From NCBI GenBank assembly GCA_019566835.1, contig GCA_019566835.1_3045.2: a DNA stretch of 35,772 nt. The stretch is one strand, 5' to 3'. The DNA comes from a phage. Position 1 is the stretch's first letter; each line of letters begins with the position of its first letter. The notes beneath the pieces were generated by a model that saw only the letters and a list, made by a program, of their open reading frames with translations, had not been told where the DNA came from and searched no databases. The translations under genes and the position numbers were made by a program. Shown in pieces: positions 90 to 20,944 of this stretch.

Positions 90-3000
90 ATGGCTACTTT
101 AAAACAAATACAATTTAAAAGAAGCAAAACCGCAGGCGCGCGTCCTGCTGCTTCAGTATTAGCCGAAGGTGAATTGGCTATAAACTTAAAAGATAGAACA
201 ATTTTTACTAAAGATGATTCAGGAAATATCATTGACTTGAGCATTTCCACTGGCGGCAATATCAGTGGAAATATCACTCAAACTGGTGATTATTTACAAA
301 ACGGCACGTATAATCTTAATGGAAACCAGTTTGTTTATGCAGGAAAATACATTGAATTTTTACCTAAAACCGCTGGTAATGGTGCGTGGGCAAATCAACA
401 CCTCAATAAAGCTCCTATCTTTACAGATTTAAGTTCAACTACTTCTGTTTCAGAATATCATCCACTCATTAAGCAGCGTTATAAAGATGGGACTTTTTCT
501 GTTGGTACGTTAGTAAACGAAGGAAGTTTTAAAATTCATTATATTAATGAATCGGGAACTTCAAAATATTGGACATTTCGTAGAGATGGTGGATTTGTTG
601 TTGATACAGGAAGTTTGACAGTAACAGATGGAAATATTTCTGCCTCTGGTAATATTAATTCAGCTACTGGGGTAGTTTCTGCTCCGCAGATTAATACAAA
701 GACTATAGTTTTTGATACAAAAGCGTTCGGACAATATGATTCGCAGTCATTAGTTCAATATGTTTATCCTGGAACAGGTGAAGCAAACGGAATCAATTAC
801 CTTCGCAAATTCCGTGCTAAATCTGGTGGTACAATTTATCATGAATTAGCTTCTGCGCAAACCGGAAAAAGTGATGAACTTTCTTGGTGGACTGGTAATA
901 CAGCGGTTAATAAACAAATGGGCCTTCGCAATGATGGGTCTTTAGTACTACGACGTTCACTTGCAATTGGTACAATTACAACAGATGAAAACATCAATAA
1001 CTACGGTTCCACTGGAGCAATGGGCGAATGTTATATAGTTATTGGTGATGCATCAACAGGTTTATCATACAAAAAAACTGGGGTATATGACTTAGTTGCT
1101 AGTGGTCTTTCTGTAGCATCTATTACTCCTGATAGTTTCCGTAGTACGCGCAAAGCGATTTTTGGACGCTCGGAAGACCAAGGCGGTACGTGGCTTCTTC
1201 CTGGTCAAAACTCATCTCTTCTTTCAGTTCGTACTGAAGCTGACCAAAACAATAATGGAGATGGTCAGACACATATTGGCTATAATAGTAATGGTAAATT
1301 TTATCATTATTTTAGAGGCAGAGGAAGAATGGCCATTGGAATGGCCGAAGGACTTATTGTTGAACCAGGAATTTTAGATATTAAAACTGGTTCAAATACA
1401 TTAAGTTTGCGTGCTGATGGTACCGTCGCTTCTGTTCAAACATTAAAGCTTAATAATGGATTATATTTTAATAGCGATGGAACTAACGCTTCTCTAATTT
1501 TTAAAGCAGCTTCAGGTATTGATGGTACTAAACAAATACTTTGGGAAGGTGGTACTCGTGCTGGGCAGAATAAGAGCTATGTAACTGCTAAAGCTTGGGG
1601 AAATTCATTTAATTCATCTGGCGATCGTAATCGTGAAACGGTTTTTGAAGTATCAGATGGACAAGGATATTATTTTTATGCTCAACGCGTAGCTCCTGCA
1701 CCAGGTTCAACAACTGGTGCAGTTCAATTTAGAGTTGCCGGAGCATTATTAACTTCTGGCGGTATTACATCATCTGGTTCTATTGTTACTGAATCTAGCT
1801 TAGTTGCAAATAATGGATTATCTGTAAATGGACAAGCTAAATTTGGTGGAACAGCAAATGCATTAAGAATTTGGAATGCCGAATATGGCGCCATATTCCG
1901 TCGCTCAGAAACAGCATTGCACATTATTCCTACTCTTAAAGACCAAGGAGAAAATGGTGAAATAGGTAATCTTCGTCCATTGAGCATCTCACTTAACAAC
2001 GGTATGGTTCAAATGCGCCATTCTGTCACGTTAGGTGATGATGGTGCAGGCGGTAATATGGTGACGGTTGATAATGATTCTAAAGTTATAGTAATGACGA
2101 CTAATAGCCGTATTAGTCCTAACTTCCGTATGCAAATTGGACAGTCGTCTTATATTGATGTGGAATGTACTGATGCTGTGAGACCTGCTGGAGCCGGTTC
2201 TTTTGCTTCACAGAATAACGAAAACGTTCGCGCTCCGTTCTATATGAATATTGATAGAACAGATACAAGCACTTATGTTCCTATTGTGAAACAAAGATAC
2301 GTGCAAAATAATAGTTGCTATTCTATTGGTACTTTAATTAATGGTGGTAACTTTAGAGTTCATTATCATGAAGGTGGCGATGGCGGTTCTACAGGCGCAA
2401 TTATAAAAGATTTAGGATGGGAATTTAATAAAAACGGTGATTTTTATTCTCCTGGTAAATTAGGCGCTGGAAATATTAGAATAGGTACTGATGGTAATAT
2501 CACGGGTGGTTCTGGTAACTTTGCTAACTTGAATACAACTTTAAACCGTAAAGTTAATTCTGGTTTTATTACTTATGGAGCAACGGCAGGTTGGTACAAG
2601 TTTGCAACAGTAACAATGCCTCAAGCTACATCAACTGTTTCAATTACAGTCACCGGTGGAAATGGATTTAATTCTGGGTCATTTAATCAGTGTGCAATTT
2701 CTGAAATTGTTCTTCGTACAGGAAACAATACTCCTAAAGGATTAAATGCTGTTCTATATAGAAGAGGACTAAATTCATTTAGAGATATTGCTTGGGTTAA
2801 TACATCTGGTGATACATATGACATTTATGTTAATATGGGAACATATGCTAATCAGTTGATATTTAACTATAGTTCTGTTGATAACGCCACAGTTCAAATT
2901 ATTGGCGCATTCAGCTCAGCTCAAAATCCTGTTGATGCATTGCCAGAAACATATGTTAAAGGTCAGGTAGCAGATGTATTGACTAACTTAGTTGATTCTG

Positions 3001-5635: not shown

Positions 5636-5788
5636 TCAATTAGTTGACTTTGCTATAATATCATCAGACGCTTGATTTGTAAACTGGTCTGTGGTATTTT
5701 CTTCAAAAATTTTTTCTACGAATTCCTTGAACGACTCGCGTTCCTGAGCTACATTATGCTCGATTACCTTTTCAAGATTATGACTCAT
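5636..5788 (-). CDS. Small acidic ORF (50 aa) between arn and asiA
   Basis: ATG overlaps the arn stop (ATGA). Its 3' half contains the asiA early promoter, so coding status is uncertain. Confidence 0.3.
   Translation of the reverse strand: MSHNLEKVIEHNVAQERESFKEFVEKIFEENTTDQFTNQASDDIIAKSTN
5655..5684 (-). promoter_or_regulatory. T4-type early promoter upstream of asiA
   Basis: Minus strand reads GTTTAC, 18-nt spacer, TATTAT, with an AT-rich upstream region. Confidence 0.6.
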
Positions 5789-6063
5789 TCGAAATAATCT
5801 TCAATTTCATAATCATGGACATAAATCATTATAGTTTTTAATACATCATCAATACTTTTTCCTGGAGCTGGAATTACGTAAAAATATCCTGCTTTTGAGA
5901 GGTCTTTATAAGTTCCAATCAAGAAATCATTATTCTCAAGATGTAGTTCTTCAACTAATTCATTAACAATTGAATGGTATAGGTTTGGTAGAAACTTATA
6001 TAGCTTTTCTAGAATATCAATTTTGATTGTGTATTGAACCACGGATTGAGAATCAATAATCAT
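5785..6063 (-). CDS. arn: Anti-restriction nuclease Arn (anti-McrBC)
   Basis: 92-aa acidic ORF in the T4 arn position next to asiA; size matches. Confidence 0.8.
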   Translation of the reverse strand: MIIDSQSVVQYTIKIDILEKLYKFLPNLYHSIVNELVEELHLENNDFLIGTYKDLSKAGYFYVIPAPGKSIDDVLKTIMIYVHDYEIEDYFE

Positions 6064-16202: not shown

Positions 16203-16232
16203 ATTATACCACATCCTTGTGGTAAAGTAAAC
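16203..16232 (-). promoter_or_regulatory. T4-type early promoter for the rIIA.1-rIIA-rIIB unit
   Basis: Minus strand reads GTTTAC, 18 nt, GTGG-TATAAT; the -35 element overlaps the gene 39 stop codon. Confidence 0.65.
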
Positions 16233-18049
16233 TACTGGCTCATCCATTCTTTACGAAGGTCAGCATTATCTCCCATGAGCATTTCAAAAAGCTCTTTCCA
16301 GTTCTCAGGAAGTTTAACAACATCATATACTGGATTTTGAATCATTTCACGATATTCAGATTTTTCCAAAGAGCCAAGTCCTTTAATATAACGGATGCTA
16401 TGTTTAGGTAGAGCATCTTTGGCACTCTCATATTCAGCGACTGTATAAAACCATTCTTGTTTTTTACCGACCTGAGCGATGATTACAGGAGTTTTGACAA
16501 AGCGAATTCGTCCTTGCTCAAACAATTCTGGCCAATTACTAAAAAATCCGAGCAGAGAAGGATAAATGCTTCCTAGACCATCATGGTCAGCATCAGTCAT
16601 AATAGCAATATTGCGATAATTCATGTTTTCAGCTTTTTCACCAAGAACTAATCCAGTGATTGCGCAAATATCAAATAGTTCTTTGTTTTTAAGCATATCT
16701 GCATAAGACATACCCCAACTGTTGAGAACTTTACCACGCAATGGATAACCACCATGAAGTTCTTTATCACGAACATCAATAAGATATCCGATAGCAGAAT
16801 CACCCTCAGTCAAGAAAAGAGTAGTATCAGCATCTTTACCGCACAGATTAGCTTTAATATGTTTATGAACCTTTGCCTTAGAAGCCTTTTTAGCTGCTTT
16901 AGTTTCAGCTGCTTTTTCTGCTGCCAATTTACGAGCTAGTGCAGCTTCAATAATTGGCATTAAAATTGCTTCATTATTTAAAATAGCGCGTGAAATCTTT
17001 TTAGCGTCAAGTTGAATATGACTACGGATTTCACCAAATGGAGAAGTCAAACGCTCTTTAGTTTGAGAATCAAATCGCATGTTTTTCATATCACGAACAA
17101 ACATAACGATAGTCAAACATTCTTTAACGCGTGCTTTAGTTACATCAATTTTGAACTTACGTTTGATTTGTGGAATAAGGTCTTCACAAATATCATCCAT
17201 AACACAGTCAATGTGATGGCCACCATTCTTAGTATGAATGTTATTGACGTATGTTAATTGACGAAATCCATCCGGTGAACGACCAACCGCAATAGAACAA
17301 TTTTCTTGTTCTTGAACAATAGCATGTTCATCATACTGTAGTGCATATTTCTTAAAATTGCCCTGAACCTTTTTACCATTAAAGGTAAATTGAATATCAG
17401 GATAAACAACAGCAAGTGTCTGGAGACGATCTAGTGTAATGTCAAGATAAACTTGGGACAGCTCATTAGTTTCAAATGACATAAAATCTGGAATGAAAGT
17501 AACACGAGTTCCTTTCCATTTTCCAGGAATAGTTTCCCAGGATTTATTTTCCATGCCATTTGAACAACGAACTACAATATTATTTTGACCATCGCCAGTT
17601 TCACCGACAAACATCACAGAAAAAATGTTAGTTAAACTAGAACCAACACCATTCATACCACCGGTGACACGTTCTTTATCATCACCAAAGTTACCACCCG
17701 CTTTTGGAATAGTCCAAGCAGCAACTGGACCAGGAATTTCTTCACCGGTAGGTGTTTTAACCATCGCTTGTGGAATACCACGACCGTTATCTTCAACTGT
17801 TACTTGATTGTTTTTAATAGTAACATTAATTTTATTTGCGAATTTAAACTTAGTACGAATACCTTCATCTACTGAGTTATCGATAATTTCATCAATAAGC
17901 TTAACAAGACCAGGTACATACTGAACACTTTCCCATTTACCAAACAGAAAGCGCTCATGCATTTCATTAGCAGAAGAGCCAATGTACATGCCACTACGCT
18001 TTTTGATATGTTCAATATCGCTCAGAATTTTAATTTCATTCTTAATCAT
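16232..18049 (-). CDS. 39: DNA topoisomerase II large subunit (GyrB-like) gp39, uninterrupted
   Basis: 605 aa from the ATG at 18049 (SD GAGGATAAG; the ORF-track start at 18052 is GTG). N-terminal GHKL ATPase motifs (DEIIDNSVDEG, EDNGRGIP) and a C-terminal Toprim-like region sit in one frame. Confidence 0.92.
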   Translation of the reverse strand: MIKNEIKILSDIEHIKKRSGMYIGSSANEMHERFLFGKWESVQYVPGLVKLIDEIIDNSVDEGIRTKFKFANKINVTIKNNQVTVEDNGRGIPQAMVKTPTGEEIPGPVAAWTIPKAGGNFGDDKERVTGGMNGVGSSLTNIFSVMFVGETGDGQNNIVVRCSNGMENKSWETIPGKWKGTRVTFIPDFMSFETNELSQVYLDITLDRLQTLAVVYPDIQFTFNGKKVQGNFKKYALQYDEHAIVQEQENCSIAVGRSPDGFRQLTYVNNIHTKNGGHHIDCVMDDICEDLIPQIKRKFKIDVTKARVKECLTIVMFVRDMKNMRFDSQTKERLTSPFGEIRSHIQLDAKKISRAILNNEAILMPIIEAALARKLAAEKAAETKAAKKASKAKVHKHIKANLCGKDADTTLFLTEGDSAIGYLIDVRDKELHGGYPLRGKVLNSWGMSYADMLKNKELFDICAITGLVLGEKAENMNYRNIAIMTDADHDGLGSIYPSLLGFFSNWPELFEQGRIRFVKTPVIIAQVGKKQEWFYTVAEYESAKDALPKHSIRYIKGLGSLEKSEYREMIQNPVYDVVKLPENWKELFEMLMGDNADLRKEWMSQ

Positions 18050-18076
18050 CACTTATCCTCGTTTGGTTTCGGGAAT

Positions 18077-18101: not shown

Positions 18102-18119
18102 AAAGGCCCGAAGGCCTTT
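18102..18119 (-). terminator. C(UUCG)G tetraloop hairpin terminator
   Basis: AAAGGCC-UUCG-GGCCUUU overlaps the stop of the lipoprotein gene. Confidence 0.45.
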
Positions 18120-18388
18120 TATTTAAAACGAATAGTTGAATCCTTAAAGAACAGCCCAGAACATACTGTTCCTTCTACTTTCTGCCCGGTAGGTCCAATA
18201 GCACGAAATCCAGTATGTTGGAAATCATTTTCAGAGCAACCGAACCAGTTATATCCAGTGATTTCAATATTCGTAAAACCACTTGATGATAAAATTTTAG
18301 TTGCATTATCAGCATCAGTACATCCTACTAAAGATACTGCTAATACTAATGCTGCGATAGAACGATTAATATATTTCATAATTTTCAC
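18119..18388 (-). CDS. Putative lipoprotein (89 aa)
   Basis: N-terminal signal peptide ending in lipobox LVGC (SIAALVLAVSLVGC). Confidence 0.65.
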   Translation of the reverse strand: MKIMKYINRSIAALVLAVSLVGCTDADNATKILSSSGFTNIEITGYNWFGCSENDFQHTGFRAIGPTGQKVEGTVCSGLFFKDSTIRFK

Positions 18389-18756
18389 TTAAATTTAATA
18401 GCTTGAAGAAGACTAATAATTCTCAAGCGACTTCTTTCATCTTTAACTGTAAAGGAAAGAGGGTCGCCAGATTTCATGGTAATAGTGCATTCAAAATCAA
18501 AATCTTCTGTGACTTCTTCGAAGAAGTCAAATTCTTCAGCATAAATTAGAACATTACTCTGAAAACTGTGAAGAATTTTTCCGTTATTTCCAGACGCTGT
18601 ACTAATCATCGTAACATTATGACCTTTCATATCTTCAACGATAAATTCGCTTGTAGATATTACAGCATTAATAGAACCATTCCTATAAATAGCAGACATT
18701 AGATATTTCTTTTCTTCGCCTTCGCGAATACGATATTTCTTACCGATTTTAAACAT
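18385..18756 (-). CDS. Hypothetical protein (123 aa)
   Basis: ORF with SD AAAGGA; ATGA overlap with the downstream gene. Confidence 0.65.
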   Translation of the reverse strand: MFKIGKKYRIREGEEKKYLMSAIYRNGSINAVISTSEFIVEDMKGHNVTMISTASGNNGKILHSFQSNVLIYAEEFDFFEEVTEDFDFECTITMKSGDPLSFTVKDERSRLRIISLLQAIKFK

Positions 18757-18758
18757 AA

Positions 18759-18935
18759 TTATCCTTTAAGTAAGTCGTAAAATCCGCCATTCACATGCTT
18801 AGGAGCAGAAGGCCGACGAGTAGACAAACGATGACATTTAGGGCAAACATCATTTTCTCGTTCAGAAATCTTTTTAATTTTTTCATATTCATGCCCGCAA
18901 TCTTCGGATTGGCATTTATAATCATACATTGGCAT
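18759..18935 (-). CDS. Zinc-ribbon protein (58 aa), FmdB-like
   Basis: MPMYDYKCQSEDCGHEYEKIKKISERENDVCPKCHRLSTRR... has two CxxC pairs and the M-P-x-Y-x-Y-x-C start typical of FmdB-type zinc ribbons; SD AAGGAA. Confidence 0.5.
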   Translation of the reverse strand: MPMYDYKCQSEDCGHEYEKIKKISERENDVCPKCHRLSTRRPSAPKHVNGGFYDLLKG

Positions 18936-18937
18936 AA

Positions 18938-19363
18938 TTATTCCTTAAAGTGTGCTTTCAGCATTTGATACAAGGACCATGCCTGTTCATTATTTTCAAT
19001 AGTAACTTTCATGACAGGAAATTCTGTGAAATCTTCTATTTGTTCTTGCTCTTTCTCTTCCTGCTCTTGCTCTTCAGCTGCCTGATATGGATTTTCCACT
19101 TCATCAAAGAACTCGGCTTCGTTAGTAGAGAGCCAGATAAAGTTTTCGTCAAGGATATCACCATGTGTTGCATATCCAATTGTGCCAGTAAATGACATAA
19201 TTTTAGTAGGACGACCAAGATGGTCAACATCTAAAATTTTAAAAGGATGCATACCTAAACGTCGTGCATAAATTCCGTTATCAGTATGGTCTTTAATAAA
19301 AGCTTCTTGAGCTTGTTTATTTTTAAATTGATACCATTTATTAACTTCAAATCTAATAGCCAT
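18938..19363 (-). CDS. Hypothetical protein (141 aa)
   Basis: Start taken at [11 protein letters not shown] with SD GGAAGGA; acidic E/Q-rich linker. Confidence 0.65.
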
Positions 19364-19578
19364 TAATAAATTTCCTTCCAATAAGTTGTACCATCTTCAG
19401 TAATTTCGCGAAATACACCGTAAATTGGTTGTTTATCACCAACCTTTTCATACACATAAACCGAAGTCAAGTGAGTAAACTTAACGGTATGTTCTTTTTG
19501 AACTACTACCAAATCTGGATCGAATAATACATCTTCAAATTCGTCATTAGTGCAATTCTGAACAATTTTACGTTTCAT
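19363..19578 (-). CDS. Hypothetical protein (71 aa)
   Basis: ORF tiled between neighbouring minus-strand genes. Confidence 0.6.
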
Positions 19579-19968: not shown

Positions 19969-20388
19969 TTATGCTAAAGCTGCTTCGCACCATTTTTTAA
20001 TTTGGAATTCAGGAACTACCATGAACTGGCCTGCAAAAACAATATTGTAGAGCTTGACACCATCTTCTACCCAACGGTCCGAAATAAAACCAGCGACTTG
20101 ATTCGTTGTCCATGGAGTTCCATCTGTTGCCGCCGCAATTGTGAATTTATGGTCTTTTACAACTAAAACTGAAGAACAAAGTTTCCATTTAAATGCGCTT
20201 TCTTCTGGCTCAATGAACTGACTTGAGACATAACCAATGTTACCATCAGCGTCACGAACTTTAACCTCGTTACGACCAAAAACTGGATCACTTACAGAAA
20301 GAACTTCAACCAGCTTTCCTGCAACTTTAGAACGAGAAGCAACGGATACATATACGTAATCACCAGTAGAGAGATTTGCAATATTCAT
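19969..20388 (-). CDS. Hypothetical protein, paralog family member A (139 aa)
   Basis: SD AAGGA. Shares the N-terminal SRSK-AG-LVEV block and the C-terminal GF-TD-W-EDG-KLYNIVF module with the next gene. Confidence 0.7.
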   Translation of the reverse strand: MNIANLSTGDYVYVSVASRSKVAGKLVEVLSVSDPVFGRNEVKVRDADGNIGYVSSQFIEPEESAFKWKLCSSVLVVKDHKFTIAAATDGTPWTTNQVAGFISDRWVEDGVKLYNIVFAGQFMVVPEFQIKKWCEAALA

Positions 20389-20397
20389 AATAATTCC

Positions 20398-20871
20398 TTA
20401 AGCTTTACGAGGAGAAGCATAACGAGTGATTTCAGATTCTTCAACAACCCGGAAGTCACCTAAGAATACGATATTGTAGAGCTTTTCACCATCTTCAACC
20501 CATTGGTCTGTGATGAAGCCACACATCCTATCAGTTTTACTTGGACCAGCGAAATCATCAATATAATCGAATTCTTCATCAGTTACAAATTCAACGCCTT
20601 TACACAACGCCCATTTAAATTGTGTATTAGACTCAGTGGATTCAACTTCTTCAACAGAAGCAAAATGAGAGCTAACACGAGTTTCCAGAAATTTAGGACT
20701 TACGTAAGCGTACTGAGTTTCAGTTTTTCCAGAACCAGGAATGATTCGAACTTTAACTTCTTTAACACGACCAGTACCATTAGTACGAAGTCCTACCACT
20801 TCAACTAGACGACCTGCAGCTTTAGAACGAGATGCAGACGATACACGCTTAATTTCACCGATAGTAATCAT
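20398..20871 (-). CDS. Hypothetical protein, paralog family member B (157 aa)
   Basis: Start taken at MITIGEIKRV, because the longer in-frame ATG lies inside the upstream promoter. Same conserved N- and C-terminal blocks as member A. Confidence 0.7.
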   Translation of the reverse strand: MITIGEIKRVSSASRSKAAGRLVEVVGLRTNGTGRVKEVKVRIIPGSGKTETQYAYVSPKFLETRVSSHFASVEEVESTESNTQFKWALCKGVEFVTDEEFDYIDDFAGPSKTDRMCGFITDQWVEDGEKLYNIVFLGDFRVVEESEITRYASPRKA

Positions 20872-20914
20872 AATTTTTCTCTCTTTGTTGTTAAGATTTA
20901 TACTCCGCAGGACC

Positions 20915-20944
20915 ATTATACTCTGGTCCCAAGAGTTTGTAAAC
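20915..20944 (-). promoter_or_regulatory. T4-type early promoter
   Basis: Minus strand reads GTTTAC, 18 nt, TATAAT, with a second GAGTATAAAT about 20 nt downstream. Confidence 0.55.

Follow-up and report, generated by a model that had tools for sequence, protein, structure and literature searches.

The window, by which we mean the whole 35,772-nucleotide stretch of phage DNA that was analysed, is a Tequatrovirus genome. A 1.5-kb region surrounding the small open reading frame (ORF) considered here matches 635 T4-like phage records, the best of them (98.7% identity) being that of Escherichia phage teqsoen. The ORF runs along the minus strand at 18759..18935 (177 nt); it opens with ATG and, after 58 sense codons, closes with TAA. 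Its predicted product, MPMYDYKCQSEDCGHEYEKIKKISERENDVCPKCHRLSTRRPSAPKHVNGGFYDLLKG, has 58 residues, a mass of 6.8 kDa and a mildly basic pI of 8.4. The preliminary description had placed a 58-codon ORF with the Shine-Dalgarno sequence AAGGAA here, leaving the strand unstated. Both are present on the minus strand, and the plus-strand translation of the same interval contains many stops. The gene and its immediate surroundings are:

18759..18935, minus strand: gene 39.2 orthologue (nwgI), from the ORF list, sequence, identity to T4 (47/58), position in T4 and dN/dS (omega) of 0.04-0.14
18941..18946, minus strand: Shine-Dalgarno sequence AAGGAA, 5 nt (TAATT) ahead of the 39.2 ATG
18938..19363, minus strand: goF orthologue, immediately upstream of 39.2 (phrog_622, E 3e-40)
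18385..18756, minus strand: 123-aa ORF, a distant goF-family paralogue, 2 nt downstream of 39.2 (phrog_622, E 3e-29)

The genes are packed head to tail, suggesting a polycistronic unit with translational coupling. AAGGAA, which is unchanged among the window, T4 and teqsoen in a DNA alignment, overlaps the final two sense codons of goF, and the goF TAA stop (18938..18940) is 2 nt from the 39.2 ATG, the minus-strand sequence 5′ of that ATG being TTTAAGGAATAATTATG; this 2-nt spacing and the position of the Shine-Dalgarno sequence within goF suggest that 39.2 is translationally coupled to goF. The GGATAATTATG junction is repeated between the 39.2 stop and the next ORF, which starts at 18756. From this arrangement, 39.2 is probably translated, coupled to goF, from a leftward, prereplicative, polycistronic mRNA. 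A promoter/terminator scan gave 11 sites against 12.7 +/- 3.4 in shuffled controls and, as this is no excess, no promoter was assigned; the top minus-strand promoter-like site (20943..20915, 11/12) lies ~2 kb upstream of 39.2, at a motB paralogue. Our literature search found no T4 expression data, or expression timing, for 39.2.

Orthology to T4 gene 39.2

The leftward gene order in T4 (NC_000866) is motB, cef, goF, 39.2, 39.1, 39; in the window it is two motB-family genes (PF17613), cef (PF24050, E 5e-35), goF, 39.2, the 123-aa ORF, a 39.1 homologue and gene 39. Thus the order motB-cef-goF-39.2-39.1-39 of both teqsoen and T4 matches that of the window, and cef-goF-39.2-...-39 is common to the window, T4, teqsoen, VR25 and RB69. 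The goF-family ORF of 123 aa that separates 39.2 from 39.1 in the window phage is annotated in teqsoen, but is absent from T4.

T4 Gp39.2 (assembly OZ035787.1), MPLYDYKCQSKDCAKEYEKIKKISERDTDVCPDCHRLAVRLVSAPKHVNGGFYDLLKG, is an uninterrupted 58 aa, of which 47 (81%, over residues 1-58) are identical in the window protein. The two proteins share their length, four cysteines and a C-terminal SAPKHVNGGFYDLLKG, and are encoded at the same place in the genome, with goF on one side and 39.1/39 on the other; none of the 11 substitutions (of 58 positions) falls at a predicted zinc ligand or in the tail motif described below. Both this conserved gene order and the sequence match identify the window ORF as the orthologue of T4 gene 39.2 (nwgI). 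Homologues from RB69, RB49 and RB43 align end to end with the window protein, and a homologue lies immediately upstream of the topoisomerase gene 39 in VR25 (Gaprivervirus), RB69 (Mosigvirus) and Citrobacter phage NM4.3 (Moonvirus), and likewise just upstream of it in RB49 and G2494 (Krischvirus), in Serratia phage 92A1 and in RB43 (Pseudotevenvirus).

In the T4 RefSeq record NC_000866, 39.2 is annotated as only 45 aa. When the two T4 spans are compared (5702..5839 of NC_000866 against 1201..1377 of OZ035787.1) the former carries an additional T as well as five clustered substitutions, and it is the additional T that accounts for the short annotation; a legacy sequencing error or a strain difference is the likely origin of the discrepancy. 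PMC5153855 gives the 39.2 product as a ‘58-amino acid peptide’, in agreement with OZ035787.1.

Conservation and architecture of a small zinc-ribbon protein

Profile searches bear out the earlier assignment of the product to the FmdB-type zinc ribbons, both family models scoring above their curated cut-offs: Pfam PF09723 (Zn_ribbon_8) at 45.7 bits against 34.4 (E 6.7e-12) and NCBIfam TIGR02605 (‘FmdB family zinc ribbon protein’) at 44.9 bits against 31.3; phrog_1076 is matched too (E 7e-12). The expectation that the frame would be conserved in related phages also held, the 39.2 frame being open in all 34 distinct homologous sequences, as against 0-4 of the 34 for the other five frames. Among orthologous ORFs taken from 37 loci, every copy that is not cut by a contig end is intact, at 53-65 aa. 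By codon position (1/2/3), variable columns number 11/7/40 when 20 distinct sequences from Tequatrovirus, Mosigvirus and Gaprivervirus are compared across 56 codons free of gaps, and Nei-Gojobori dN/dS (omega) against the window sequence is 0.04-0.14. Gene 39.2 is under strong purifying selection; small as it is, the ORF is a genuine gene and a strongly conserved one.

Against this, the supposition that it is a mere product of chance, in a phage genome rich in A and T, for which one could cite its shortness (58 codons) and the similar-length ORFs that overlap it in other frames, is refuted by the selection (omega and codon-position counts alike), by the frame conservation (at most 4/34 elsewhere) and by profile E-values of ~1e-11, runs counter to the deletion phenotype described for the orthologue in PMC5153855, and has virtually no probability left. 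The overlapping ORFs themselves (18791..18925 on the minus strand, 44 aa, and 18795..18968 on the plus strand, 57 aa) are judged spurious, since only the 39.2 frame is open throughout the 34 sequences.

Nor is the gene an overlooked one. A tblastn search with the window protein matched 886 phage records, 216 of them at 99% identity or more and 852 covering at least 80%, and more than 200 phage genomes on deposit encode exactly this protein, most often under the name ‘hypothetical’, ‘zinc ribbon’ or ‘FmdB-like transcriptional regulator’. The preliminary description called its size an unannotated one, which is true in that the ORF falls under a 60-aa ORF cut-off; the gene itself, though, has been annotated for T4 and in the majority of records from related phages, and annotations of it stand in hundreds of T4-like genomes.

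The protein divides into an N-terminal ribbon and a short tail, as follows (conservation percentages refer to the 34 distinct homologues aligned):

18816..18935, minus strand: zinc-ribbon domain, residues 1-40 (PF09723 match to residues 1-41; AlphaFold2 model)
18912..18914, minus strand: predicted zinc ligand C8, 97% conserved
18897..18899, minus strand: predicted zinc ligand C13, 74% conserved
18843..18845, minus strand: predicted zinc ligand C31, 88% conserved
18834..18836, minus strand: predicted zinc ligand C34, 100% conserved
18762..18815, minus strand: predicted flexible tail, residues 41-58 (AlphaFold2 pLDDT 52-61)
18774..18806, minus strand: C-terminal tail motif A44-P45-K-H-V-N-G50-G51-F52-Y53-D54 (alignment of the 34 homologues)

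The two cysteine knuckles, which start near the initiator methionine, are C8/C13 and C31/C34, the second of them being CPKC. M1, P2 and Y4 are invariant in the 34-sequence set, and Y6 and R26 are each 97% conserved. The first knuckle varies: Tequatrovirus has Cx4C, Moonvirus and RB43 have CxxC, and RB49-like phages have CxxH; in the RB49-like Krischvirus members G2494 and RB49 it reads C-E-E-H, and by alignment a histidine probably replaces the second ligand (C13) there. In RB43 the second knuckle is CxC. These variant knuckles argue that the ligand geometry is plastic while the tail motif is kept: across the family the tail conforms to A44-P45-x-x-[VI]-x-G50-G51-[FY]52-Y53-D54, with P45, G50 and G51 at 100% and A44, Y53 and D54 at 91-97%.

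An AlphaFold2 model built on a 28-sequence alignment (mean pLDDT 78.7) has four short beta-strands (residues 3-8, 16-20, 28-30 and 37-40; pLDDT 87-89), as for a zinc ribbon, and a tail whose pLDDT is only 52-61. A Foldseek search of the PDB with this model returned no match at E <= 0.001, every hit having E >= 0.38 and being a generic zinc module (MCM N-terminal domain, RbpA, RNAP subunit P, ribosomal zinc-ribbon proteins), and a sequence-profile search against PDB entries had no hit under E = 0.026; neither the sequence nor the fold search of the PDB thus detects a relative of solved structure. A tail that is as conserved as the zinc ligands and yet modelled as flexible would fit a partner-binding linear motif.

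The relationship to bacterial FmdB proteins emerged when 1.84 billion representatives were searched exhaustively with phmmer: 155 proteins reached E <= 1e-3, and 6 of these reached E <= 1e-10; a word-indexed protein search had given 7 close relatives only, and it was the exhaustive HMMER search that revealed the wider family. One group, ‘39.2-like’, has the NGGFYD tail, and those of its members for which context is available come from T4-like phages or from contigs of 135-180 kb, one cluster including a Pantoea sp. record. The second group consists of canonical bacterial FmdB proteins with ‘SAPxFxFKGSG[WF]YxTDY’, at the position matching AP..V.GGFYD of the phage tail, and often with long low-complexity extensions. 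Bacterial FmdB proteins (PF09723 Zn_ribbon_8; TIGR02605 CxxC_CxxC_SSSS) share with the phage protein the N-terminal MP.Y.Y.C, two cysteine knuckles ~17 residues apart and, after the ribbon, ‘SAP’ followed by a Gly-Gly/aromatic element. They differ from it in the first knuckle, which is CxxC where the window protein has Cx4C, and in the tail, the short NGGFYD(LLKG) of the window protein standing in place of ‘KGSG[WF]YxTDY’ and a long Ser/Gly-rich low-complexity extension. The window protein is without that extension, and ends 17 residues past the ribbon in a conserved, non-repetitive tail. The ‘SSSS’ in the TIGR02605 name stands for the degenerate low-complexity Ser/Gly-rich C-terminal extension, which the model does not require. 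Judged by sequence, the phage protein represents a compact subfamily within the FmdB zinc ribbons; a literature search on FmdB function found nothing relevant.

Probable GroEL modulation and competing functions

That the T4 orthologue acts on the host chaperonin is already known. Gp39.2/NwgI modulates the host GroEL/GroES machine (PMC5153855; PMC4396842, Mattenberger et al.; both citing Ang & Georgopoulos 2012, PMID 22234860), and for T4 both sources report that it suppresses the phenotypes of groEL/groES mutants. According to PMC5153855 it shifts GroEL toward an open, GroES-accepting state, on evidence that is both genetic (allele-specific) and biochemical, and T4 deleted for 39.2 does not grow on certain groEL mutants. 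The effect on GroEL is reported there for the T4 and RB69 orthologues, with reference to Ang & Georgopoulos, Genetics 2012.

Since the window protein is 81% identical to T4 Gp39.2, has an identical tail and is encoded at the same locus, we assign it the GroEL-modulator role by orthology, with a probability of roughly 0.85. By this analogy with T4 the window 39.2 protein would act on a host protein and not on nucleic acid, shifting GroEL toward an open conformation that accepts GroES or a phage co-chaperonin, and this shift would aid the folding of GroEL-dependent phage proteins where the host chaperonin is suboptimal. The zinc ribbon may serve as a scaffold and the conserved tail as the element that binds the partner. 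Gp39.2 could have further activities besides the one behind the GroEL phenotype.

The co-chaperonins gp31 of T4 and CocO of RB49 are, like Gp39.2, phage factors that adapt the host GroEL for phage protein folding. They are, however, going by their descriptions, GroES-like heptameric lids, unrelated in sequence and fold to the 58-aa zinc-ribbon Gp39.2; they replace GroES, whereas Gp39.2 reportedly biases the conformational equilibrium of GroEL.

A further step would be to regard the tail AP..V.GGFYD as a short linear docking motif for GroEL, shared with bacterial FmdB proteins acting as chaperonin modulators, a suggestion drawn from the conservation patterns and the T4 phenotype which we consider unlikely. 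If it were this tail that contacts GroEL, the large FmdB family of bacteria, with its ‘regulatory’ label, could be one of endogenous chaperonin modulators.

The preliminary description offered a different function, that of a nucleic-acid-binding regulator. On such a view the FmdB-like ribbon would control phage or host gene expression by binding to DNA, RNA or RNA polymerase. PHROG 1076 and RefSeq both use the name ‘FmdB-like transcriptional regulator’, the neighbouring motB, cef and goF act on transcription or RNA, the best (non-significant) folds include RNA-polymerase-associated zinc modules (RbpA, RNAP subunit P), and the protein has a mildly basic pI. The name itself, though, goes back to the genetic setting of a single bacterial gene. 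Our literature search found no experiment supporting the regulator label, a Pfam/NCBIfam scan detected no DNA- or RNA-binding domain besides the generic ribbon (Ogr_Delta, zf-FPG and similar models scoring far below their cut-offs), and none of the fold matches reaches an E-value below 0.38. A homologue of 39.2 in a Citrobacter phage carries the annotator's note ‘like_Com’, and phage Mu Com is, like the window protein, a small four-cysteine phage protein; Com, though, is an RNA-binding translational activator, and for the window protein Pfam yields no evidence of that kind, there being no match to the Com family. The phenotype demonstrated for the orthologue is on GroEL, and such experiments as are reported for it (PMC5153855; PMC4396842) concern GroEL/GroES only. 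The idea of a nucleic-acid-binding regulator thus finds no backing here, and we hold it to be quite improbable.

Alternatively, the protein might be a zinc-ribbon adaptor for another host protein, the GroEL phenotypes arising indirectly, for instance through titration of a GroEL substrate or induction of a stress response. Ang and Georgopoulos reportedly found overproduction of 39.2 to be lethal to the host, and this could be read in favour of a different target, as could the related tails in bacterial FmdB proteins and the highly conserved, predicted-flexible nature of the phage tail, which is typical of a short linear binding motif. What weighs against it is the allele-specific genetic, and the biochemical, evidence on GroEL conformation set out in PMC5153855, and we see only a very slim chance of another target.

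The value of the present analysis is mainly corrective: records that carry ‘FmdB-like transcriptional regulator’, or a ‘nucleic-acid binding regulator’ description, should be changed to ‘Gp39.2/NwgI, GroEL modulator’. For T4 itself, RefSeq NC_000866 also gives too short a gene, 45 aa, as the result of a 1-nt discrepancy.

Observations on neighbouring genes

In the window phage, 39.2 has a distant goF-family paralogue on either side, both matching phrog_622; direct pairwise comparison of goF with the 123-aa ORF shows no clear relation (21% identity, E 0.29). RB69 has some ORF in the slot equivalent to that of the 123-aa ORF. The mechanical goF ORF reaches a TTG at 19381; translation is likely to begin at the ATG that gives MAIRFEV..., for a product of 141 aa as in T4.

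The 39.1 homologue (18119..18388, minus strand) encodes 89 aa with a signal peptide and a lipobox-like LVGC (MKYINRSIAALVLAVSLVGCTDA) and, from these features, is a probable lipoprotein; one JLBYU record labels its 39.1 homologue ‘putative lipoprotein’. T4 39.1 is annotated at 65 aa, without the signal-peptide N-terminus, and a related MKYISRSIAALVLAVSLINSTDA reading lies just upstream in the T4 DNA. Gene 39 (16232..18052, minus strand), for the topoisomerase II large subunit, is one unsplit gene of 606 aa, without the T4 gene 60/mobA insertion and translational-bypass arrangement, and in this it resembles RB69.

At the upstream end, the two motB-family (PF17613) paralogues are adjacent (19969..20388 and 20398..20916, both minus strand). 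The promoter-like site at 20943..20915 is a near-consensus sigma-70-like TTTACA-17-TATAAT (11/12) that overlaps the mechanical start of the second paralogue, and this overlap suggests that the true start of that gene is an internal methionine (MITIGE...); the Pfam match of the second motB paralogue begins at the same methionine.
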